DNA from: a plasmid | DNA length: 64,000 bases | Reading direction: 5' to 3' (one strand) | NCBI RefSeq assembly: GCF_054482595.1 | Contig: NZ_JBTHVH010000004.1 | In this document: positions 2,220 to 43,154 of the stretch, piece after piece | How the letters are laid out: the number at the start of each line of letters is the position of its first letter | How positions within the stretch are numbered: the stretch's first letter is position 1 | The notes under the pieces: generated by a model | Told to the model about the DNA's origin: nothing | Seen by the model: only the letters and a program-made list of their open reading frames with translations | Database searches by the model: none | Position numbers and translations under genes: made by a program

Positions 2220-3035
2220 TCAGAAAAACTCATCGAGCATCAAATGAAACTGCAATTTATTCATATCAGGATTATCAATACCATATTTTTGAAAAAGCCG
2301 TTTCTGTAATGAAGGAGAAAATTCACCGAGGCAGTTCCATAGGATGGCAAGATCCTGGTATCGGTCTGCGATTCCGACTCGTCCAACATCAATACAACCT
2401 ATTAATTTCCCCTCGTCAAAAATAAGGTTATCAAGTGAGAAATCACCATGAGTGACGACTGAATCCGGTGAGAATGGCAAAAGCTTATGCATTTCTTTCC
2501 AGACTTGTTCAACAGGCCAGCCATTACGCTCGTCATCAAAATCACTCGCATCAACCAAACCGTTATTCATTCGTGATTGCGCCTGAGCGAGACGAAATAC
2601 GCGATCGCTGTTAAAAGGACAATTACTAACAGGAATCGAATGCAACCGGCGCAGGAACGCTGCCAGCGCATCAACAATATTTTCACCTGAATCAGGATAT
2701 TCTTCTAATACCTGGAATGCTGTTTTCCCGGGGAGCGCAGTGGTGAGTAACCATGCATCATCAGGAGTACGGATAAAATGCTTGATGGTCGGAAGAGGCA
2801 TAAATGCCGTCAGCCAGTTTAGTCTGACCATCTCATCTGTAACATCATTGGCAACGCTACCTTTGCCATGTTTCAGAAACAACTCTGGCGCATCGGGCTT
2901 CCCATACAATCGATAGATTGTCGCACCTGATTGCCCGACATTATCGCGAGCCCATTTATACCCATATAAATCAGCATCCAGGTTGGAATTTAATCGCGGC
3001 CTCGAGCAAGACGTTTCCCGTTGAATATGGCTCAT
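2220..3035 (-). CDS. aph(3')-Ia: Aminoglycoside 3'-phosphotransferase APH(3')-Ia (kanamycin/neomycin resistance, Tn903 type)
   Basis: 271-aa ORF MSHIQRETSCSRPRLNSN...HLMLDEFF, recalled as near-identical to Tn903 aphA1. Confidence 0.95.
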   Translation of the reverse strand: MSHIQRETSCSRPRLNSNLDADLYGYKWARDNVGQSGATIYRLYGKPDAPELFLKHGKGSVANDVTDEMVRLNWLTAFMPLPTIKHFIRTPDDAWLLTTALPGKTAFQVLEEYPDSGENIVDALAAFLRRLHSIPVSNCPFNSDRVFRLAQAQSRMNNGLVDASDFDDERNGWPVEQVWKEMHKLLPFSPDSVVTHGDFSLDNLIFDEGKLIGCIDVGRVGIADRYQDLAILWNCLGEFSPSLQKRLFQKYGIDNPDMNKLQFHLMLDEFF

Positions 3036-3139
3036 AACACCCCTTGTATTACTGTTTATGTAAGCAGACAGTTTTATTGTTCATGATGATATATTTTTAT
3101 CTTGTGCAATGTAACATCAGAGATTTTGAGACACAACGT

Positions 3140-3262
3140 GGATTTGTTGAATAAATCGAACTTTTGCTGAGTTGAAGGATCAGATCACGCATCTTCCCGA
3201 CAACGCAGACCGTTCCGTGGCAAAGCAAAAGTTCAAAATCACCAACTGGCCCACCTACAATA
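3140..3262 (+). mobile_element. IS903 terminal fragment (IR plus about 100 bp), as found flanking aphA1 in Tn903
   Basis: GGATTTGTTGAATAAATCGAACTTTTGCTGAG... matches recalled IS903 end; similarity stops 3 bp before the Tn5393 IR. Confidence 0.6.
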
Positions 3263-3264
3263 AA

Positions 3265-3303
3265 GGGGTCGTTTGCGGGAGAGGGCGAAATCCTACGCTA
3301 AGG
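3265..3303. repeat. Tn5393-type terminal inverted repeat (IRR downstream of strB)
   Basis: GGGGTCGTTTGCGGGAGAGGGCGAAATCCTACGCTAAGG followed by the conserved strB-proximal sequence. Confidence 0.85.
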
Positions 3304-3370
3304 CTTTGGCCAACGATATTCTCCGGTAAGATTGATGTGTTCCCAGGGGATAGGAGAAGTCGCTTGATAT

Positions 3371-4207
3371 CTAGTATGACGTCTGTCGCACCTGCTTGAT
3401 CGCGGCCGCGATAGCTAGATCGCGTTGCTCCTCTTCTCCATCCGCGTTCCAAGCTGCGGAAAGGCACCCATAAGCGTACGCCTGGTCGAGCAGGCGACGC
3501 GGATCGACGTCCAGCGCACGAGAGAATGCGTCCGCCATCTGTGCAATGCGTCTAGGATCGAGACAAAGGTCGTCTCTGTCAGCCGGATCGTAGAACATAT
3601 TGGCGGCGCCAAAGCCCACTTCACCGACCAGACCGACGGGATCTATCACCAGCCAGCCGCGACTGGAGAACATGATGTTTTCATGATGCAGATCGCCATG
3701 TAGCCCACGCAGTTCCGAGGCATTGCTCATCATTTGATCGGCTATAATCGCCGCGTGGACGTAGTCAGTTTGACAACCTGCGTTTTGATCATCGCGCGCC
3801 CGCTGAAACAAAGCTGCAAAGCGATCCCGGATCGGGAGAAGGGCAGAAGGCAGGGGTTCCTCAGATGCGGCATACAGCTTCGCCATTAGTTCCGCTGCAA
3901 TTTCGGTCGCCTGGTAGTCGCCGTGCTCGGCAACGATGTGAGAGAGCATTCGCTCCCCGGCATATTCGAGCAACATCAGATTGTTCTCACGACCGAGCAA
4001 CCGGACTGCTCCCCTCCCATTGCGCCATACCAGATAGTCGGCCCCGCGCAGTTCATCAGCAATGTCTTCTATAGGTTTCAATTCCTTGACGATTGCAGGA
4101 GTCCCGTCTGGCAATGAAACTTTCCAAACGAGGCTGGAAAAGGTGTCCGCAATGAGAACAGGTTGCGAAACGTGCCAATGAGCAGGAAAAACAGGCGGCA
4201 TGAACAT
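3371..4207 (-). CDS. strB: Aminoglycoside 6-phosphotransferase APH(6)-Id (StrB)
   Basis: ORF track 3371..4216; 278 aa from MFMPPVFPAHWHVSQPV... to ...AIKQVRQTSY; ATG overlaps strA stop by 1 nt. Confidence 0.95.
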   Translation of the reverse strand: MFMPPVFPAHWHVSQPVLIADTFSSLVWKVSLPDGTPAIVKELKPIEDIADELRGADYLVWRNGRGAVRLLGRENNLMLLEYAGERMLSHIVAEHGDYQATEIAAELMAKLYAASEEPLPSALLPIRDRFAALFQRARDDQNAGCQTDYVHAAIIADQMMSNASELRGLHGDLHHENIMFSSRGWLVIDPVGLVGEVGFGAANMFYDPADRDDLCLDPRRIAQMADAFSRALDVDPRRLLDQAYAYGCLSAAWNADGEEEQRDLAIAAAIKQVRQTSY

Positions 4208-5010
4208 CAACCCCAAGTCAGAGGGTCCAATCGCAGATAGAAGGCAAGGCGTTCGCGGTCGGGGGCTTCGATCCCCAATACATTGAATAGGACAGCGAAG
4301 GCGCGCTCTGCTTCATCTGGCGCTGCCCAGTTCTCTTCGGCGTTAGCAATCATGAGTGCCAAATCGGCATAGCGATCTGCTGTTCCGAGCCGCCCAAGGT
4401 CGATCAGACCCGTGCATTGAAGAGTTTTAGGGTCCACCATGAAGTTCGGCATGCAGGGATCACCATGGCAAACAACCATATCGGTGCGCTCTTGGTCGAG
4501 CCGCACCGGTAGCTCTCGTTCGACACGAGCCAAAAGATCGAGCTGCGGCGTACTCTTGTCCTCGTCCGGTAAGAAGTCGGGATTGACGGCATTGCGGGAC
4601 ACCACATCAACGGCGCGTCCGAACATTCGCGACAGCCTGCGCTCAAACGGACATTGATCAACCGATAGGCTGTGAACAGCGCCAAGTTGCTGCCCCATTG
4701 ACGGCCACGCTTTGAGCAAATCCGCTCCAGACAGATCAGCCGCCGGTACTCCCGGAATTGCCGTTATCACCAAGCATGCACCCTCCTGTTCCTCCTGCCA
4801 GTTGATCACCTCGGGGCAAGCCACACCTCGACCTTTGAGCCAAATGAGGCGGTCACGCTCTCCAGCGAGCTCACCGCGGCGGGAAGCAGGTGCGATTTTC
4901 GCGAAGGCATGCCCGTCACCACGTCGAAAAACAAAATCACCAGATTCTCCGCCTCTGACAGGCAACCAGTCAGAATGCGATTCACCAAAAAAAATATTAG
5001 TTCGATTCAA
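4207..5010 (-). CDS. strA: Aminoglycoside 3''-phosphotransferase APH(3'')-Ib (StrA)
   Basis: 267 aa from TTG start (LNRTNIFFGESHSDWLPV...) to ...YLRLDPLTWG; ORF track 4207..5196 is a longer upstream-extended frame. Confidence 0.95.
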   Translation of the reverse strand: MNRTNIFFGESHSDWLPVRGGESGDFVFRRGDGHAFAKIAPASRRGELAGERDRLIWLKGRGVACPEVINWQEEQEGACLVITAIPGVPAADLSGADLLKAWPSMGQQLGAVHSLSVDQCPFERRLSRMFGRAVDVVSRNAVNPDFLPDEDKSTPQLDLLARVERELPVRLDQERTDMVVCHGDPCMPNFMVDPKTLQCTGLIDLGRLGTADRYADLALMIANAEENWAAPDEAERAFAVLFNVLGIEAPDRERLAFYLRLDPLTWG

Positions 5011-5302
5011 TGGAGGTTCCTTCAGTTTTCTGATGAAGCGCGGAGGTGGCTCAACCTGCGAAAAGAAACGAGTTGCTATGGACTTGCACCGGTTGTGTTC
5101 CGGTCTATCTCTCATTTTAAGCGGCTTTTTTCTCAAATGCCACCGGCGATTTCCAGCCGAGTGTTGAATGTCTTCGGCGTGGATTATAAAAGCCATTTAC
5201 CCATATAATGCGCCTACTTATCAGCCTTTGGGACGTTGGGACGGTATTTTTCACTATATACCCCCAAGTTTTTAGACATGAAAAAAGGGTAATGACTCCA
5301 AC

Positions 5303-6793: not shown

Positions 6794-7613
6794 GGCACTG
6801 TTGCAAAGTTAGCGATGAGGCAGCCTTTTGTCTTATTCAAAGGCCTTACATTTCAAAAACTCTGCTTACCAGGCGCATTTCGCCCAGGGGATCACCATAA
6901 TAAAATGCTGAGGCCTGGCCTTTGCGTAGTGCACGCATCACCTCAATACCTTTGATGGTGGCGTAAGCCGTCTTCATGGATTTAAATCCCAGCGTGGCGC
7001 CGATTATCCGTTTCAGTTTGCCATGATCGCATTCAATCACGTTGTTCCGGTACTTAATCTGTCGGTGTTCAACGTCAGACGGGCACCGGCCTTCGCGTTT
7101 GAGCAGAGCAAGCGCGCGACCATAGGCGGGCGCTTTATCCGTGTTGATGAATCGCGGGATCTGCCACTTCTTCACGTTGTTGAGGATTTTACCCAGAAAC
7201 CGGTATGCAGCTTTGCTGTTACGACGGGAGGAGAGATAAAAATCGACAGTGCGGCCCCGGCTGTCGACGGCCCGGTACAGATACGCCCAGCGGCCATTGA
7301 CCTTCACGTAGGTTTCATCCATGTGCCACGGGCAAAGATCGGAAGGGTTACGCCAGTACCAGCGCAGCCGTTTTTCCATTTCAGGCGCATAACGCTGAAC
7401 CCAGCGGTAAATCGTGGAGTGATCGACATTCACTCCGCGTTCAGCCAGCATCTCCTGCAGCTCACGGTAACTGATGCCGTATTTGCAGTACCAGCGTACG
7501 GCCCACAGAATGATGTCACGCTGAAAATGCCGGCCTTTGAATGGGTTCATGTGCAGCTCCATCAGCAAAAGGGGATGATAAGTTTATCACCACCGACTAT
7601 TTGCAACAGTGCC
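6794..7613 (-). mobile_element. IS26 copy 1
   Basis: 820 bp bounded by GGCACTGTTGCAAA and TTTGCAACAGTGCC. Confidence 0.97.
6846..7550 (-). CDS. tnp26: IS26 transposase Tnp26
   Basis: 234 aa from [18 protein letters not shown]... (track ORF 6846..7568 includes 6 extra upstream codons). Confidence 0.95.
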   Translation of the reverse strand: MNPFKGRHFQRDIILWAVRWYCKYGISYRELQEMLAERGVNVDHSTIYRWVQRYAPEMEKRLRWYWRNPSDLCPWHMDETYVKVNGRWAYLYRAVDSRGRTVDFYLSSRRNSKAAYRFLGKILNNVKKWQIPRFINTDKAPAYGRALALLKREGRCPSDVEHRQIKYRNNVIECDHGKLKRIIGATLGFKSMKTAYATIKGIEVMRALRKGQASAFYYGDPLGEMRLVSRVFEM

Positions 7614-7664
7614 ACTTGACCTGATAGTTTGGCTGTGAGCAATTATGTGCTTAGTGCATCTAAC
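7614..7664 (-). other. Start of class 1 integron 3'-CS (region upstream of qacEdelta1), cut by IS26
   Basis: Reverse complement GTTAGATGCACTAAGCACATAATTGCTCACAGCCAAACTATCAGGTCAAGT. Confidence 0.7.
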
Positions 7665-7702
7665 GTCAAAATCAGCGGCGCGTTTTTATGCGTCCGCTGG
7701 AT

Positions 7703-8524
7703 TTACTTGTTGTGCGGCGTCGCAGACTCATTGAACAACCTTTTTGCCTGCGCAATTACAGTTCTCGGAAGCTCGATATTCAGAGGTTCTGTCACGCTCT
7801 TGAACAATTCGAGACTCCACGTCCACGTTTGATGATAGGCTGCACATAGTGCTCTTGGTTCTGCACTGCTTGTGCATGCCAGATAGCGATTATACGAGTC
7901 CTCCGAGATATCCTTTTCGAGCGCGCGTGAAGGTGTCGGCCAGTGGTCTGTTGCCCCTTCGTGGAGTCGAACCAGCTTGAGTAGGTTTTCATGTGCTTTG
8001 CTGAGCAAAGCCCAGGCGCGAGCGTACTCTCCCCGATTTAAAAGATTGGCCCCAAAGAGCATCAGGCTGATGAGGTTCAACACAAGCCCTTCCACCAGCG
8101 GCGCGCCTTCACGTATCGGGGGACCGCCCACGAGAGCGCTTGCGTACCTTGACAACTCTCCTGATCGGTCCAACAAAACAGCCGCCTCAAGCGAGGGAAA
8201 CCACCCATAGCCTTGCCAAGTGGAAATGACCGGTATGTCCGATTTTCGCATGAAATGGAATTCACCGCGAATGCCGTTTTCAAAAAGTGCGGTGTGGTGG
8301 CCGAAGTCGTCCGGAAAGTAAGCAGCAACCGGACTTACGGCATTAAGCCACGAGCGCTGATCGAAATTTTCAAAATGGTCATCCTGGATGAACACTGCGA
8401 ATTCGATATCAGAGAACTCGTCACCCTCTCCGATAGCAAATGAGCCGAACATCAATGCCGCGATTATTCGTGCATCCTCATGACAACCTTCCTTGAAGAG
8501 TTCGATCATTTTCAGTTGAAGCAT
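7703..8524 (-). CDS. lnu(F): Lincosamide nucleotidyltransferase, Lnu(F)-type
   Basis: 273-aa ORF MLQLKMIELFKEGCHEDARIIAALMFGSFAIGEGDEFSDIEF... (NTase G-S...D-x-E motif); sits after aadA in the cassette array. Confidence 0.8.
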   Translation of the reverse strand: MLQLKMIELFKEGCHEDARIIAALMFGSFAIGEGDEFSDIEFAVFIQDDHFENFDQRSWLNAVSPVAAYFPDDFGHHTALFENGIRGEFHFMRKSDIPVISTWQGYGWFPSLEAAVLLDRSGELSRYASALVGGPPIREGAPLVEGLVLNLISLMLFGANLLNRGEYARAWALLSKAHENLLKLVRLHEGATDHWPTPSRALEKDISEDSYNRYLACTSSAEPRALCAAYHQTWTWSLELFKSVTEPLNIELPRTVIAQAKRLFNESATPHNK

Positions 8525-8655
8525 AGAAATATCCTTTTATTGAAGCCACAGATTATGAGGAAAGGTATACGCAGATTTTTGTTTTTTTTCGTCAGCACAA
8601 CGCCGGAGTTAAGCCGCCGCGCGTAGCGCGGTCGGCTTGAACGAATTGTTAGACA
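8525..8655 (-). other. aadA attC plus lnu(F) leader
   Basis: Reverse complement begins GTCTAACAATTCGTTCAAGCCGAC... (aadA attC-like imperfect palindrome). Confidence 0.6.
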
Positions 8656-9447
8656 TTATTTGCCGATTACCTTGGTGATCTCGCCTTTCACGTAGTGGAC
8701 AAATTCTTCCAACTGATCTGCGCGCGAGGCCAAGCGATCTTCTTCTTGTCCAAGATAAGCCTGTCTAGCTTCAAGTATGACGGGCTGATACTGGGCCGGC
8801 AGGCGCTCCATTGCCCAGTCGGCAGCGACATCCTTCGGCGCGATTTTGCCGGTTACTGCGCTGTACCAAATGCGGGACAACGTAAGCACTACATTTCGCT
8901 CATCGCCAGCCCAGTCGGGCGGCGAGTTCCATAGCGTTAAGGTTTCATTTAGCGCCTCAAATAGATCCTGTTCAGGAACCGGATCAAAGAGTTCCTCCGC
9001 CGCTGGACCTACCAAGGCAACGCTATGTTCTCTTGCTTTTGTCAGCAAGATAGCCAGATCAATGTCGATCGTGGCTGGCTCGAAGATACCTGCAAGAATG
9101 TCATTGCGCTGCCATTCTCCAAATTGCAGTTCGCGCTTAGCTGGATAACGCCACGGAATGATGTCGTCGTGCACAACAATGGTGACTTCTACAGCGCGGA
9201 GAATCTCGCTCTCTCCAGGGGAAGCCGAAGTTTCCAAAAGGTCGTTGATCAAAGCTCGCCGCGTTGTTTCATCAAGCCTTACGGTCACCGTAACCAGCAA
9301 ATCAATATCGCTGTATGGCTTCAGGCCGCCATCCACTGCGGAGCCGTACAAATGCACGGCCAGCAACGTTGATTCCAGATGGCGCTCAATGACGCTTAGC
9401 ACCTCTGATAGTTGGTTCGAAATTTCGATGGTCACCGCTACCCTCAT
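8656..9447 (-). CDS. aadA: Aminoglycoside (3'')(9)-adenylyltransferase AadA; aadA2-type N-terminus on an aadA1-type body
   Basis: 263 aa from MRVAVTIEISNQLSEVLSVIERHLES...; from about residue 55 identical to the aadA1 copy at 39702..40493 except ...KVIGK tail. Confidence 0.85.
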   Translation of the reverse strand: MRVAVTIEISNQLSEVLSVIERHLESTLLAVHLYGSAVDGGLKPYSDIDLLVTVTVRLDETTRRALINDLLETSASPGESEILRAVEVTIVVHDDIIPWRYPAKRELQFGEWQRNDILAGIFEPATIDIDLAILLTKAREHSVALVGPAAEELFDPVPEQDLFEALNETLTLWNSPPDWAGDERNVVLTLSRIWYSAVTGKIAPKDVAADWAMERLPAQYQPVILEARQAYLGQEEDRLASRADQLEEFVHYVKGEITKVIGK

Positions 9448-9595
9448 GATGTCTAACTTTGTTTTAGGGCGACTGCCCTGCTGCGTAACATCGTTGCTGC
9501 TCCATAACATCAAACATCGACCCACGGCGTAACGCGCTTGCTGCTTGGATGCCCGAGGCATAGACTGTACCCCAAAAAAACAGTCATAACAAGCC
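9448..9595 (-). promoter_or_regulatory. attI1 and 5'-CS leader of class 1 integron
   Basis: ...GCCCTAAAACAAAGTTAGAC immediately before aadA ATG; lies between aadA and the intI1 start. Confidence 0.75.
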
Positions 9596-9716
9596 ATGAA
9601 AACCGCCACTGCGCCGTTACCACCGCTGCGTTCGGTCAAGGTTCTGGACCAGTTGCGTGAGCGCATACGCTACTTGCATTACAGCTTACGAACCGAACAG
9701 GCTTATGTCCACTGGG
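9596..9716 (+). pseudogene. intI1: intI1, first 40 codons only (truncated by IS26)
   Basis: ATGAAAACCGCCACTGCGCCGTTACCACCG... identical to the start of the intI1 copy at 43780. Confidence 0.9.
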
Positions 9717-10536
9717 GGCACTGTTGCAAATAGTCGGTGGTGATAAACTTATCATCCCCTTTTGCTGATGGAGCTGCACATGAACCCATTCAAAGGCCGG
9801 CATTTTCAGCGTGACATCATTCTGTGGGCCGTACGCTGGTACTGCAAATACGGCATCAGTTACCGTGAGCTGCAGGAGATGCTGGCTGAACGCGGAGTGA
9901 ATGTCGATCACTCCACGATTTACCGCTGGGTTCAGCGTTATGCGCCTGAAATGGAAAAACGGCTGCGCTGGTACTGGCGTAACCCTTCCGATCTTTGCCC
10001 GTGGCACATGGATGAAACCTACGTGAAGGTCAATGGCCGCTGGGCGTATCTGTACCGGGCCGTCGACAGCCGGGGCCGCACTGTCGATTTTTATCTCTCC
10101 TCCCGTCGTAACAGCAAAGCTGCATACCGGTTTCTGGGTAAAATCCTCAACAACGTGAAGAAGTGGCAGATCCCGCGATTCATCAACACGGATAAAGCGC
10201 CCGCCTATGGTCGCGCGCTTGCTCTGCTCAAACGCGAAGGCCGGTGCCCGTCTGACGTTGAACACCGACAGATTAAGTACCGGAACAACGTGATTGAATG
10301 CGATCATGGCAAACTGAAACGGATAATCGGCGCCACGCTGGGATTTAAATCCATGAAGACGGCTTACGCCACCATCAAAGGTATTGAGGTGATGCGTGCA
10401 CTACGCAAAGGCCAGGCCTCAGCATTTTATTATGGTGATCCCCTGGGCGAAATGCGCCTGGTAAGCAGAGTTTTTGAAATGTAAGGCCTTTGAATAAGAC
10501 AAAAGGCTGCCTCATCGCTAACTTTGCAACAGTGCC
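9717..10536 (+). mobile_element. IS26 copy 2
   Basis: 820 bp with IS26 terminal IRs. Confidence 0.97.
9780..10484 (+). CDS. tnp26: IS26 transposase Tnp26
   Basis: 234 aa MNPFKGRHF... Confidence 0.95.
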   Translation: MNPFKGRHFQRDIILWAVRWYCKYGISYRELQEMLAERGVNVDHSTIYRWVQRYAPEMEKRLRWYWRNPSDLCPWHMDETYVKVNGRWAYLYRAVDSRGRTVDFYLSSRRNSKAAYRFLGKILNNVKKWQIPRFINTDKAPAYGRALALLKREGRCPSDVEHRQIKYRNNVIECDHGKLKRIIGATLGFKSMKTAYATIKGIEVMRALRKGQASAFYYGDPLGEMRLVSRVFEM

Positions 10537-13033: not shown

Positions 13034-14594
<1,561 letters not shown>

Positions 14595-16988: not shown

Positions 16989-17808
16989 GGCACTGTTGCA
17001 AATAGTCGGTGGTGATAAACTTATCATCCCCTTTTGCTGATGGAGCTGCACATGAACCCATTCAAAGGCCGGCATTTTCAGCGTGACATCATTCTGTGGG
17101 CCGTACGCTGGTACTGCAAATACGGCATCAGTTACCGTGAGCTGCAGGAGATGCTGGCTGAACGCGGAGTGAATGTCGATCACTCCACGATTTACCGCTG
17201 GGTTCAGCGTTATGCGCCTGAAATGGAAAAACGGCTGCGCTGGTACTGGCGTAACCCTTCCGATCTTTGCCCGTGGCACATGGATGAAACCTACGTGAAG
17301 GTCAATGGCCGCTGGGCGTATCTGTACCGGGCCGTCGACAGCCGGGGCCGCACTGTCGATTTTTATCTCTCCTCCCGTCGTAACAGCAAAGCTGCATACC
17401 GGTTTCTGGGTAAAATCCTCAACAACGTGAAGAAGTGGCAGATCCCGCGATTCATCAACACGGATAAAGCGCCCGCCTATGGTCGCGCGCTTGCTCTGCT
17501 CAAACGCGAAGGCCGGTGCCCGTCTGACGTTGAACACCGACAGATTAAGTACCGGAACAACGTGATTGAATGCGATCATGGCAAACTGAAACGGATAATC
17601 GGCGCCACGCTGGGATTTAAATCCATGAAGACGGCTTACGCCACCATCAAAGGTATTGAGGTGATGCGTGCACTACGCAAAGGCCAGGCCTCAGCATTTT
17701 ATTATGGTGATCCCCTGGGCGAAATGCGCCTGGTAAGCAGAGTTTTTGAAATGTAAGGCCTTTGAATAAGACAAAAGGCTGCCTCATCGCTAACTTTGCA
17801 ACAGTGCC
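16989..17808 (+). mobile_element. IS26 copy 4
   Basis: 820 bp with IS26 terminal IRs. Confidence 0.97.
17052..17756 (+). CDS. tnp26: IS26 transposase Tnp26
   Basis: 234 aa MNPFKGRHF... Confidence 0.95.
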   Translation: MNPFKGRHFQRDIILWAVRWYCKYGISYRELQEMLAERGVNVDHSTIYRWVQRYAPEMEKRLRWYWRNPSDLCPWHMDETYVKVNGRWAYLYRAVDSRGRTVDFYLSSRRNSKAAYRFLGKILNNVKKWQIPRFINTDKAPAYGRALALLKREGRCPSDVEHRQIKYRNNVIECDHGKLKRIIGATLGFKSMKTAYATIKGIEVMRALRKGQASAFYYGDPLGEMRLVSRVFEM

Positions 17809-36682: not shown

Positions 36683-37584
36683 TCAGCGATCGGCTCGTTG
36701 CCCTGCGCCGCTCCAAAGCCCGCGACGCAGCGCCGGCAGGCAGAGCAAGTAGAGGGCAGCGCCTGCAATCCATGCCCACCCGTTCCACGTTGTTATAGAA
36801 GCCGCATAGATCGCCGTGAAGAGGAGGGGTCCGACGATCGAGGTCAGGCTGGTGAGCGCCGCCAGTGAGCCTTGCAGCTGCCCCTGACGTTCCTCATCCA
36901 CCTGCCTGGACAACATTGCTTGCAGCGCCGGCATTCCGATGCCACCCGAAGCAAGCAGGACCATGATCGGGAACGCCATCCATCCCCGTGTCGCGAAGGC
37001 AAGCAGGATGTAGCCTGTGCCGTCGGCAATCATTCCGAGCATGAGTGCCCGCCTTTCGCCGAGCCGGGCGGCTACAGGGCCGGTGATCATTGCCTGGGCG
37101 AGTGAATGCAGAATGCCAAATGCGGCAAGCGAAATGCCGATCGTGGTCGCGTCCCAGTGAAAGCGATCCTCGCCGAAAATGACCCAAAGCGCGGCCGGCA
37201 CCTGTCCGACAAGTTGCATGATGAAGAAGACCGCCATCAGGGCGGCGACGACGGTCATGCCCCGGGCCCACCGGAACGAAGCGAGCGGGTTGAGAGCCTC
37301 CCGGCGTAACGGCCGGCGTTCGCCTTTGTGCGACTCCGGCAAAAGGAAACAGCCCGTCAGGAAATTGAGGCCGTTCAAGGCTGCCGCGGCGAAGAACGGA
37401 GCGTGGGGGGAGAAACCGCCCATCAGCCCACCGAGCACAGGTCCCGCGACCATCCCGAACCCGAAACAGGCGCTCATGAAGCCGAAGTGCCGCGCGCGCT
37501 CATCGCCATCAGTGATATCGGCAATATAAGCGCCGGCTACCGCCCCAGTCGCCCCGGTGATGCCGGCCACGATCCGCCCGATAT
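36683..37584 (-). pseudogene. tetA(A): tetA(A), 3' fragment with canonical C-terminus, 5'-truncated at a Tn2 IR
   Basis: Frame ...ITGATGAVAGAYIADITDG... to ...LRRGLWSGAGQRADR; same DNA as the inner part of the complete tetA(A) at 51931..53130. Confidence 0.9.
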
Positions 37585-37622
37585 GGGGTCTGACGCTCAG
37601 TGGAACGAAAACTCACGTTAAG
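37585..37622. repeat. Tn2/Tn3 38-bp terminal inverted repeat
   Basis: GGGGTCTGACGCTCAGTGGAACGAAAACTCACGTTAAG. Confidence 0.9.
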
Positions 37623-37731
37623 GGATTTTGGTCATGAGATTATCAAAAAGGATCTTCACCTAGATCCTTTTAAATTAAAAATGAAGTTTTAAATCAATCT
37701 AAAGTATATATGAGTAAACTTGGTCTGACAG

Positions 37732-38970
<1,239 letters not shown>

Positions 38971-39153
38971 GTCCTGCGAATATGTGAGTTTTGACCTAAT
39001 GAGCCACAAAAACTCATTTTCGCCCACGATAATTTTTCTACTTCCTTTCTTTGGAATGCTCATTTCAATATTCACATAACGTCGCTATCAATCGCGGAAA
39101 AGGCGTAGTGCGCGAAGCGAACGAAGCTTTTTGCCGTCGATTGCATAGCTTTG

Positions 39154-39636
39154 TTAACCCTTTTTCCAAATTTGATAGCAATAGTTAATGTTTGAAGTAA
39201 AGTGTTGCTCAAAAACAACTTCGAAGGTATTTGGAATACTCGGGAAGAAAACATCCCCCTCTGGCTCGATGTCGATCGTCGATAAGTGGAGCGTAGAGGC
39301 CATGGGTAATGTTTCTCGGTAAATTTCTCCGCCACCAGACACTATAACGTGACCGGTGAATTCAGCTAGCCTGTCCATGGCCTCTTCGATTGACTGAAAT
39401 ACAACTACATTGTCATCATTTGATGTCCAACCTGAGCGGGTAACGACCGCGTATTTCCTATTGGGGAGTGCGCCCATAGATTCAAACGTCTTGCGACCCA
39501 CCAGAAGCCACTGATTGTAGGTCAATGCTTTAAAAAGTAGCTGCTCCCCTTTCGCGGACCAGGGTATGTCTGGACCGCAACCAATCACGCCGTTTTTCGC
39601 TTTCGCAGCCATCAATGATACTTTCAAGGTTCTCAT
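39154..39636 (-). CDS. dfrA14: Trimethoprim-resistant dihydrofolate reductase, DfrA14-like (DfrA5/14 group)
   Basis: 160-aa [71 protein letters not shown]...; true start may be a few codons in. Confidence 0.8.
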
Positions 39637-39701
39637 CCTGGGTTAACGCTTGAGTTAAGCCGCGCCGCGAAGCGGCGTCGGCTTGAACGAATTGTTAGAC
39701 A

Positions 39702-40493
39702 TTATTTGCCGACTACCTTGGTGATCTCGCCTTTCACGTAGTGAACAAATTCTTCCAACTGATCTGCGCGCGAGGCCAAGCGATCTTCTTCTTGTCCAAG
39801 ATAAGCCTGTCTAGCTTCAAGTATGACGGGCTGATACTGGGCCGGCAGGCGCTCCATTGCCCAGTCGGCAGCGACATCCTTCGGCGCGATTTTGCCGGTT
39901 ACTGCGCTGTACCAAATGCGGGACAACGTAAGCACTACATTTCGCTCATCGCCAGCCCAGTCGGGCGGCGAGTTCCATAGCGTTAAGGTTTCATTTAGCG
40001 CCTCAAATAGATCCTGTTCAGGAACCGGATCAAAGAGTTCCTCCGCCGCTGGACCTACCAAGGCAACGCTATGTTCTCTTGCTTTTGTCAGCAAGATAGC
40101 CAGATCAATGTCGATCGTGGCTGGCTCGAAGATACCTGCAAGAATGTCATTGCGCTGCCATTCTCCAAATTGCAGTTCGCGCTTAGCTGGATAACGCCAC
40201 GGAATGATGTCGTCGTGCACAACAATGGTGACTTCTACAGCGCGGAGAATCTCGCTCTCTCCAGGGGAAGCCGAAGTTTCCAAAAGGTCGTTGATCAAAG
40301 CTCGCCGCGTTGTTTCATCAAGCCTTACGGTCACCGTAACCAGCAAATCAATATCACTGTGTGGCTTCAGGCCGCCATCCACTGCGGAGCCGTACAAATG
40401 TACGGCCAGCAACGTCGGTTCGAGATGGCGCTCGATGACGCCAACTACCTCTGATAGTTGAGTCGATACTTCGGCGATCACCACTTCCCTCAT
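39702..40493 (-). CDS. aadA1: Aminoglycoside (3'')(9)-adenylyltransferase AadA1
   Basis: 263 aa from MREVVIAEVSTQLSEVVGVIERHLEP... to ...VKGEITKVVGK; 16 bp after blaOXA-10 (fused cassette). Confidence 0.9.
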   Translation of the reverse strand: MREVVIAEVSTQLSEVVGVIERHLEPTLLAVHLYGSAVDGGLKPHSDIDLLVTVTVRLDETTRRALINDLLETSASPGESEILRAVEVTIVVHDDIIPWRYPAKRELQFGEWQRNDILAGIFEPATIDIDLAILLTKAREHSVALVGPAAEELFDPVPEQDLFEALNETLTLWNSPPDWAGDERNVVLTLSRIWYSAVTGKIAPKDVAADWAMERLPAQYQPVILEARQAYLGQEEDRLASRADQLEEFVHYVKGEITKVVGK

Positions 40494-40509
40494 GATGTTT
40501 AACTTTGTT

Positions 40510-41310
40510 TTAGCCACCAATGATGCCCTCACTTTCCATGATTTTGGTGGGAATGGATTTTCTTAGCGGCAACTTACTTTCGTTGTCTATATCCATGTTA
40601 AAGGCGAAAAAGTAAACCTCTGTCTCCTTCTCAACCCACCCAACCCACCATGCGACACCAGGATTTGACTCAGTTCCCACACCAGAAAAACCAGTTTTTG
40701 AATGCACTAGATATTCAGGTGCCGCCTCCGTTACCAAAGCCTCTTTTACTATTAGCTGGTTTTCTTTAGATGCTGACAATTTATTTAAATATAGAGACTC
40801 TAGAAACTCCACTTGATTAACTGCGGAAATTCTAAGCTGGCCTTCCAACCAGAATTTGTCAATGCCACCACTGATATTCTGGTTGCCATAGGAAAATTTT
40901 TTAAGGTATTTCTGCATTCTTACTTCGCCAACTTCTCTGGCGATTTGTTGAAATACGGGAACAGCTGAAACTTGTATTGCCCCTCTTAAGGTCAAGTCTC
41001 TTTCCCATTGCTTCATGGCTCTTGGCTTTCCGTCCCATTTGAAAACCTGATGCTCATTCTTTATGACACCAGTTTCTAGGCCGATAATTGCGTTGGGGAT
41101 CTTAAATGTTGATGCTGGAAGATATTCCTTTGATGCACGAGCTAAGTCATTGGTAGCGCAGGATTTACTGCTACTTTTACAAAGCACGAAGACACCATTG
41201 ACGGCTTCGGCAGAGAACTCTTTGTTCCAAGACGTATTTTCTGTAATTGAACCAGCTAATGCCGTACTCGAAAGACACGCGATAATTACATATGCGGCAA
41301 ATGTTTTCAT
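40510..41310 (-). CDS. blaOXA-10: Class D beta-lactamase OXA-10 family
   Basis: 266-aa [35 protein letters not shown]...STFK...KTG... Confidence 0.9.
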
Positions 41311-41574
41311 GGCACCTTCTTGGTGGCTAACGTTAATTCGACCTCAGAGGCGTTTAAGTCAAAATACCTCTGACGTCTAACATGATTAATCAAAGTCTGA
41401 TTTTTTAACAAAATCAGAAAGATAGACGCGAAACTTTAAAACAAAGGCGTCAACACTTCAAGTAGCGATCTTTCGCTTCGGCGAGGCCTAACGCCTGAGC
41501 TCAGCCGACCGAAACCGCGTAGCGGTTTTGGGTCGGCTGCAGCGATTTGTTGGGCGATAGCTTGCCACATTCTC

Positions 41575-42834
41575 TCAACGATTGGGATTTGATGTACTTT
41601 CCGCACTTTGTAGCGCGACCACATCATGCTCCCCCTGGCCGCGAGAGCCCTTCACTCGGGAAACACAAGACAGACCGAGCACGACTGTTGCAAGGGTCAA
41701 ACAGTACACGACAACCGGCCAAGCCGTGTTGCGCGGCAACAGCGAAATGATCAACGTTCCGATGCTTCCTAGCAGTACACCGCCCAAGCAGAAGTAGACT
41801 GCCGTGACCGTTCCAGCAACATGGTCGAATCCTCGAAGAGCGCCATTGGGCGACACAGATACCGCTGTGGCGACACCAATACCCACTAGCCACATTGGAG
41901 CAATAAAGCCTAACACGGACTGCGAAGCCCATATTTCGGTGATGGCAAGCAATACTGCTCCAGCTATCAGGCATCCCATTCCCATTCGCAAGACACTTGG
42001 GCTGCCCCACTTGGGTATCACACGCCCCATAAAACGAGCCGTAAACACCATGGCAATTGCCACTGTGGCGAACAGCAGGCTGAAGCCAAGCTGAGACACA
42101 CCTTGCCTGCCCATCATTAGTCCGGGCGCAATGGAGAAAAAGACGAAGAAGCTACCCATTCCAGCGGCGTAACACAACGTGTACAACCAGAAGTTCAGGC
42201 ACTTAACGGGGAGTAGCAGCTGCGACCATTGCAAGCCCGCAACTCGTTGCACCCGGGTTTCAGGCCAGAATCGCCACGCTGCTGCAGATGCAGCGATCAT
42301 GCCCAAACCTAGAAACGCAAAGATAGCCCGCCACCCAAGCCACATGTCGACGAGCGCTCCGAGCAATGGGCCTACCGCCGGGACCATGGCCAGCATGGAT
42401 CCGAGTATGCCGTAAATGACATTACTTTCCTCGCGACCTGCGTAAATGTCACGTACTGTTGCAAATGTGGAAACAAGGCACGCCGAGGCACCACAAGCCT
42501 GAAGAATCCGAAGCCCCAGAAAGACTTCAGCCGATGACGTAAGAGCGAGGCCCATTGACGCCACAACGTAGGCGAGGCCACCTCCCAGTAGAACGGGGCG
42601 GCGCCCCAGTCGGTCCGATAGCGGTCCAAACAAGAGCTGACCGGCACCAATCATGACCAAGTACGTTGTCAGCGTAAGCTGAATTGTGCTCGCTGTCGTA
42701 CCAAGCGCGTTTGGCATAAACGGCACTGCTGGCAAGTACATGTCCATGCCGAGTGATGCCAATAAATCGAACGGTGATAACAACAACACCGTGGCGGCAA
42801 GGGAGTACCGCCAACTAAAGTTTTTTGAGCGCAC
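41575..42834 (-). CDS. cmlA: Chloramphenicol efflux MFS transporter CmlA
   Basis: 419 aa from GTG start (RSKNFSWRYSLAATVLLLSPFD...); track ORF 41575..42882 is a longer upstream frame. Confidence 0.9.
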   Translation of the reverse strand: MRSKNFSWRYSLAATVLLLSPFDLLASLGMDMYLPAVPFMPNALGTTASTIQLTLTTYLVMIGAGQLLFGPLSDRLGRRPVLLGGGLAYVVASMGLALTSSAEVFLGLRILQACGASACLVSTFATVRDIYAGREESNVIYGILGSMLAMVPAVGPLLGALVDMWLGWRAIFAFLGLGMIAASAAAWRFWPETRVQRVAGLQWSQLLLPVKCLNFWLYTLCYAAGMGSFFVFFSIAPGLMMGRQGVSQLGFSLLFATVAIAMVFTARFMGRVIPKWGSPSVLRMGMGCLIAGAVLLAITEIWASQSVLGFIAPMWLVGIGVATAVSVSPNGALRGFDHVAGTVTAVYFCLGGVLLGSIGTLIISLLPRNTAWPVVVYCLTLATVVLGLSCVSRVKGSRGQGEHDVVALQSAESTSNPNR

Positions 42835-43154
42835 GAAACCATCTCCTTGAACAAAGGATTTGGCGGCGCTCCCGTAGAGCAAAAGGATTCATGAGAACGC
42901 CGCAACAACCGAAAAATGAAGGTTGCTGCGGCTTACTTGTCTGCGTTCTTGGAAGTGCTCATCTGCTGACTATCTCATGATTGAATTTGAATCGTAACAA
43001 CTTTCAAGCAACTCTGCGAGGAGCCTTATTGTGCGCCCAACGCCGCCATAAACGGCGACAGGGTGGCGCGCCTATTGCGCATAAAATGGCGAAGCCATGC
43101 GCAACAGGCGCGGAATCTCTGGCGTCCGGTTTGATGGCTTTGTTATGCAAAGGA

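Follow-up and report, generated by a model that had tools for sequence, protein, structure and literature searches.

The dfrA14 end of a published IS26-bounded class 1 integron module and its truncated mobC segment

We conclude, with a probability of about 0.9, that the dfrA14 region analyzed here forms the 3′ end of a resistance module which is widespread and already published, namely a class 1 integron lying between two directly oriented copies of IS26. The whole IS26-bounded unit occupies positions 38151-45605 (7,455 bp) of the window, i.e., of the complete stretch of 64,000 nucleotides of plasmid DNA under analysis (contig NZ_JBTHVH010000004.1), and is read on the minus strand from 45605 to 38151. 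The order on this strand is IS26, intI1-attI1, arr-2, cmlA5, blaOXA-10/aadA1 (fused), dfrA14, a 108-bp stub of a so-called mobC segment and IS26 again. This order and the gene identities confirm what an initial annotation, made from the sequence alone, had proposed, that dfrA14 lies distal to the blaOXA-10/aadA1 cassette.

The cassettes are bounded by core sites and end in attC sites, with G/TT crossover points at 43644/43643, 43041/43040, 41492/41491, 39647/39646 and 39079/39078; only the last core, GTTATGT, departs from the GTTRRRY consensus. The first cassette after attI1 carries arr-2 (cassette 43041-43643, minus strand; coding sequence 43155-43607), which scores 223 bits against the NCBIfam profile for rifampin ADP-ribosyltransferases. 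It is followed by cmlA5 (cassette 41492-43040, minus strand; coding sequence 41575-42834) with 951.7 bits against NCBIfam CmlA. Arr-2 and CmlA5 are both called at 100% identity in a DNA-identical record. The third cassette, blaOXA-10/aadA1 (39647-41491, minus strand), contains the coding sequences of blaOXA-10 (40510-41310; NCBIfam OXA-10 family, 625 bits) and of aadA1 (39702-40493; AadA1, 597.6 bits), which are separated by only 16 nt without an attC in between. A fusion of these two genes through loss of the blaOXA-10 attC has been described in In53 (Naas 2001, reviewed in PMC8876359). The 16 nt from the blaOXA-10 stop codon to the aadA1 ATG read AACAAAGTTAAACATC (window 40494-40512, minus strand) and, with the stop codon included, form CTAAAACAAAGTTA, which is the same as the 3′ end of attI1. 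Owing to this match, the sequence hints at a fusion event, either a deletion or a recombination, involving an attI1 upstream of an aadA1 cassette. In53 shares the complete run arr-2-cmlA5-blaOXA-10/aadA1 with the window, including the lost blaOXA-10 attC. It reportedly differs in having extra upstream cassettes, blaVEB-1 and aadB among them, and in that its aadA1 is not followed by dfrA14.

The dfrA14 cassette (39079-39646, minus strand, 568 bp) has G/TT crossover points at both ends and encodes DfrA14 within the reference boundaries. A 160-aa open reading frame starts with ATG at 39636 and ends with the stop codon at 39156-39154 (coding sequence 39154-39636, minus strand); the DfrA14 reference protein has 157 aa, and AMRFinder coordinates given for a record of identical DNA place its start at TTG 39627. 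In that record DfrA14 is called at 100% identity, and the gene scores 302.5 bits against NCBIfam trim_DfrA1_like (cut-off 250). On the proximal side, the stop codon of aadA1 (39704-39702, minus strand) is followed by a 60-bp attC (39641-39700, minus strand) with the inverse core GTCTAAC at 39700-39694 and the core GTTAACC at 39647-39641, and its bottom strand folds into a hairpin (z = −3.35). The initial annotation had this attC ending in GTTAAC and dfrA14 starting 6 bp later. GTTAAC is indeed present at 39647-39642 on the minus strand and is followed by five bases, CCAGG, and then by ATG 39636, so that the spacing is correct for the 160-aa reading frame.

At its distal end, dfrA14 has an 87-bp attC (39073-39159, minus strand) with the inverse core GGTTAAC at 39159-39153 and the core GTTATGT at 39079-39073; the bottom strand forms a long imperfect hairpin (−19.9 kcal/mol, z = −3.26). 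In records with another cassette after dfrA14, the match to the query stops at the end of this attC (query positions 1-79). The start of the cassette, TTAACCCAGG, aligns exactly with the start directly after attI1 in pHCM1, CP050283 and pEsco-36073cz, and across the four contexts the cassette is invariant except for a 1-bp gap in CP050283 and an intron insertion in pEsco-36073cz. The latter is a group II intron (ltrA) which lies within the dfrA14 attC directly after GGGTTAA (NZ_MG252895.1, 4030-6000). As a separate observation, the junction of the aadA1 attC and dfrA14 in pVAS3-1 (KU160531.1, approx. 7100-7134) is approximately 40 bp shorter than that of the window.

The opposite end of the array has the remaining elements of a class 1 integron. 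An intI1 gene (43780-44785, plus strand) is located beside attI1 and diverges from the cassettes, and attI1 ends at the crossover AAACAAAG/TTATGC (boundary 43644/43643). Alignment with intact intI1 copies revealed that IS26 has cut the gene, which is missing its last two codons; the open reading frame continues into IS26 for 35 codons to 44892. The resulting fusion of 370 aa has lost two residues and gained a 35-residue tail, retains the catalytic C-terminal region, matches the integron integrase profile PRK15417 (NCBIfam) with 797 bits over profile positions 1-336 of 337, and is listed in RefSeq as IntI1 (WP_024166810.1). Within intI1, the cassette promoter Pc is predicted at 43867-43895 (minus strand) as the weak PcW variant (TGGACA, 17-nt spacer, TAAGCT, no TGN), and P2 has the inactive form with a 14-nt spacer. 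Apart from one nucleotide in Pc, the 5′-CS is identical to that of pHCM1 and of other records. Transcription of dfrA14 would presumably depend on read-through from the weak PcW and from internal cmlA5 and blaOXA-10 promoters, which have been reported for In53 (PMC8876359, reviewing Naas 2001). A simple consensus scan for promoters and terminators, itself uninformative, flagged no promoter of its own for dfrA14 on the coding strand.

The initial annotation further stated that approximately 180 bp after dfrA14 the array is terminated by IS26, with no 3′-CS. The distance from the stop codon to IS26 is exactly 183 bp (38971-39153), and the element which cuts the array is a complete IS26 of 820 bp (38151-38970, minus strand), whose other flank is a truncated blaTEM. 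As to the 3′-CS, the qacE start motif has no match in the window, and a blastn search of the whole window with a 1.3-kb qacEdelta1-sul1 segment found nothing near the array; the sole match is a 22-bp stub at 7614-7635, situated in a separate aadA-lnu(F) remnant. A 3′-CS is typical of “clinical” class 1 integrons and is not obligatory for membership.

The 183 bp consist of the 87-bp attC and the 108-bp stub (38971-39078, minus strand), which have a few bases of the recombination core site in common. They are identical to positions 3001-3183 of pHCM1 from Salmonella Typhi CT18 (NC_003384.1) and present in 1,467 plasmid records. In pHCM1, the 183 bp follow intI1-attI1-dfrA14 and lead into a MobC-like ORF (Pfam PF05713, E = 3.7e-7), an inverted IRt and IS6100. 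This is the structure of In191, which comprises the 5′-CS, a single dfrA14 cassette and mobC-IRt-IS6100 and has lost the 3′-CS (PMC7319535). Since the 183 bp continue into mobC-IRt-IS6100 in In191, the mobC segment takes the place of the 3′-CS, and it is this segment which IS26 has truncated, not a 3′-CS which it has removed. No remainder of the segment was found: the rest of it together with IS6100 (pHCM1 3184-4500, blastn) has no match anywhere within the 64-kb window.

The window thus contains a truncated In191-type derivative and not In191 itself. This derivative shares with In191, as present in pHCM1 and in pKPN3-type Klebsiella plasmids, the dfrA14 cassette, its boundaries and the identical first 108 bp of the mobC segment past the attC, and both are without qacEdelta1-sul1. 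In contrast to In191, three cassettes with four genes precede dfrA14 in the window, the MobC ORF, IRt and IS6100 were removed by IS26, and Pc is PcW instead of the PcH1 of pHCM1, a difference of a single nucleotide.

A different origin of the stub was considered, in which it is the 5′ end of a further gene cassette truncated by IS26, so that the array would once have continued, perhaps as far as a 3′-CS. The stub does start right at a G/TT crossover point and has an ORF with an ATG start, MSIPKKGSRKIIVGENEFLWLIRSKLTYSQD, which amounts to 52 aa in pHCM1. However, this ORF is without match in Pfam or NCBIfam, the core GTTATGT at the junction is off the GTTRRRY consensus, and the segment is annotated as mobC both by depositors and in PMC7319535. 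Above all, more than 1,000 uncut records run without any cassette end into the MobC-like ORF, IRt and IS6100, and on account of these relatives another cassette was rejected as quite improbable. The first approximately 130 bp of the mobC segment may nevertheless be the fragment of a very old cassette.

The In191-type end also offers an account of why dfrA14 is last. Uncut arrays with the same end exist: using a synthetic query in which aadA1-dfrA14-stub of the window was joined to the remaining mobC segment of pHCM1, we obtained 100% matches over 1,102 bp to aadA1-dfrA14 with the full mobC segment. One such uncut array reads aacA4cr-qnrVC1-aacA4-blaOXA-10/aadA1-dfrA14-mobC-IS6100 and another qnrVC4-qacF-aacA4-cmlA5-blaOXA-10/aadA1-dfrA14-mobC-IS6100, and the same search showed that aadB-dfrA14-mobC exists as well. 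To judge from these sequences, dfrA14-mobC-IS6100 behaves in several arrays as a fixed 3′ end with variable upstream cassettes. New cassettes normally enter at attI1, and reinsertion is strongly biased to this first position rather than to the last; with entry at attI1, a fixed dfrA14-mobC-IS6100 end is to be expected. We therefore infer that dfrA14 is distal because an In191-type backbone already held it as its last cassette when later cassettes were joined upstream, most likely by IntI1-mediated recombination at attI1 or by an exchange between the aadA1 attC and attI1. Afterwards, one IS26 would have cut into the mobC segment, leaving 108 bp of it beyond the dfrA14 attC, and another would have clipped the end of intI1.

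A different course of events would be that dfrA14 was excised from an array of the In633 type and reinserted after aadA1, followed by an IS26 which removed the 3′-CS. Cyclically permuted arrays of this kind do occur, as pEsco-36073cz and In633 have dfrA14 in first position and a qacEdelta1-sul1 3′-CS (PMC11201502, which mentions In633 as dfrA14-arr-2-cmlA5-blaOXA-10/aadA1). The In633-type array of pEsco-36073cz shares all five resistance genes and their cassettes with the array in the window, but its dfrA14 comes first, its 3′ region is a normal qacEdelta1-sul1-ISCR1 and its promoter is PcW-TGN-10. Yet in the window dfrA14 is followed by the mobC segment of In191 and not by a 3′-CS, blaOXA-10/aadA1-dfrA14-mobC-IS6100 is common to arrays with different upstream cassettes, and the preference of reinsertion for attI1 would place a cassette first and not last. 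Moreover, aadA1-dfrA14 directly before qacEdelta1-sul1 was absent among the best matches to the 861-bp dfrA14 junction and to the synthetic query. Such a relocation of dfrA14 is, thus, most improbable.

For dfrA14 as the resident last cassette, the truncated forms add a further relation. The same junction between IS26 and the mobC stub is found in 392 records, one of which, CP050283, has the single-cassette arrangement intI1-attI1-dfrA14-183 bp-IS26. As this junction is shared, the single- and multi-cassette forms must be related by recombination upstream of one and the same IS26 insertion, which could have been either a gain or a loss of cassettes. Stepwise addition of cassettes at the attI1 of a single In191 lineage was also tried as an explanation and rejected as too simple, since the Pc variants differ despite the shared 3′ end: pHCM1 and CP050283 have PcH1, the window shares PcW with a Pseudomonas plasmid, and pVAS3-1 has PcW-TGN-10, as does the In633-type array. 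Three Pc variants on arrays sharing the dfrA14-mobC end imply that exchanges between integrons, or point mutation, must also have occurred, and the 5′-CS and the dfrA14-mobC 3′ backbone have therefore been re-assorted among arrays. The one modest conceptual point is that a family of class 1 integron arrays has in dfrA14-mobC an alternative fixed 3′ end, which explains why dfrA14 is repeatedly the last cassette. This point derives from published descriptions of In191, and no new biology is required.

Both IS26 copies enclosing the integron are intact. The copy at the dfrA14 side (38151-38970) has 14-bp terminal inverted repeats, GGCACTGTTGCAAA, at both ends, is without mismatch to six other copies in the window, and carries the annotation IS26-family transposase in records of identical sequence. 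The copy at the intI1 side (44786-45605, minus strand) is likewise complete with 820 bp and has the same orientation. Two identical IS26 in direct orientation, here without a single mismatch, are the hallmark of a pseudo-compound transposon. An 8-bp target-site duplication is expected after copy-in transposition and not after conservative incorporation beside an existing IS26; around the 7,455-bp unit there is none, the flanks being CAAAAAAG and CGTTCTCA. Hence, the flanks give no sign that the unit entered here as a whole by classical transposition. Elsewhere in the window, an 8-bp duplication occurs only at the IS26 at 16989-17808 (CTTCTGGT).

A circular record of 6,635 bp, NZ_CP032077.1, was found to be a circular permutation of window positions 38151-44785 without mismatch, that is, the unit minus one IS26; it was deposited as a “plasmid” without replicon typing. 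Its sequence fits a circular translocatable-unit intermediate of IS26, and it may equally be an artefact, produced when a segment bounded by IS26 or repeated in tandem was assembled. Together with one IS26, the integron segment would, in principle, be able to move as a translocatable unit or as a pseudo-compound transposon, and movement mediated by IS26 would explain the occurrence of the identical unit in many plasmid types and in chromosomes. That the boxed-in integron is still active in both respects, with the 6,635-bp circle moving freely as a translocatable unit and a functional IntI1 exchanging cassettes, seems doubtful.

Databases and the literature were searched for the module. A query of 7,601 bp spanning the unit is matched from end to end at 100% identity by at least 20 PLSDB plasmids, which come from E. 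coli, E. fergusonii, Salmonella and Klebsiella, and 133 PLSDB records cover at least 80% of it. The same coverage is reached by 66 of 5,426 complete E. coli genomes, in some of them on the chromosome. At least 40 plasmid records contain the 861-bp dfrA14 junction at 100% identity, which is far beyond chance. An assembly chimera is excluded, since the junctions recur in hundreds of independent records. In the literature, IS26-int1-arr-2-cmlA5-blaOXA-10-ant(3″)-IIa-dfrA14-IS26 has been described as a structure of 7,340 bp without a 3′-CS, and 84 near-identical GenBank sequences were listed (PMC10026359); in the window, the two IS26 coding sequences likewise span exactly this distance, 7,340 bp. 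The same IS26-flanked array is described in PMC11201502, which cites CP101668, a record among our 100% matches to the 861-bp junction. The initial annotation had named an exact match to a catalogued array as the observation that would speak against it; with the matches above, the feature is real and its novelty is lost, and the IS26-bounded arr-2/cmlA5/blaOXA-10/aadA1/dfrA14 module is already known in the literature and in databases. The publications describing the array give no INTEGRALL In-number for exactly arr-2-cmlA5-blaOXA-10/aadA1-dfrA14.

The plasmids pKP167-261 (PMC10026359), pLD67-1-157kb (NZ_CP061187.1) and pM171-1.2 (CP101668) carry the same module, with nothing different inside the unit. 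NZ_CP061187.1 also shares its neighbors, qnrS1 on one side and the truncated blaTEM with tet(A) on the other. The wider arrangement of 25 kb is colinear with no single PLSDB record, the best match being in four pieces. Regarding its relevance, a single 6.6-kb module which can be mobilized by IS26 combines resistance to rifampicin, chloramphenicol, beta-lactams, streptomycin/spectinomycin and trimethoprim, adjoins qnrS1, tet(A) and floR, and is spreading unchanged in plasmids and chromosomes of E. coli, Klebsiella and Salmonella. This relevance is limited to routine resistance epidemiology.

Further elements were observed in the rest of the window. There are eight copies of IS26 (6794-7613, 9717-10536, 13034-13853, 16989-17808, 38151-38970, 44786-45605, 56908-57726 and 62863-63682), seven of which are identical with 820 bp, the copy at 56908-57726 having 819 bp; a lone IS26-like inverted repeat is found at 47524. 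The remnant of a second class 1 integron is located between two IS26 at approximately 7614-9716, with a PcW promoter near 9711, an aadA-family gene (8656-9666) scoring just under the AadA1 cut-off, and lnu(F) (7703-8524). It ends with a short 3′-CS stub cut by IS26 at 7613/7614 and, thus, unlike the dfrA14 integron, once had a 3′-CS. Beyond the IS26 at the dfrA14 side (window 36683-38150), tet(A) is truncated at approximately codon 105 by the 38-bp inverted repeat (37586-37623) of a Tn2/Tn3-type transposon, and the blaTEM of this transposon is itself cut short by IS26 at 38150/38151. On the other side, qnrS1 (46620-47276) and an ISKra4-family transposase (48056-49450; ISKpn19 in an identical record) directly flank the IS26 next to intI1, as they do in pLD67-1-157kb. 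A second, intact tetR(A)-tet(A) is present at 51175-53130 beside floR (53730-54944) and a truncated ISCR element (56076-56912), and aph(3′)-Ia, aph(6)-Id and aph(3″)-Ib lie within 2220-5196.
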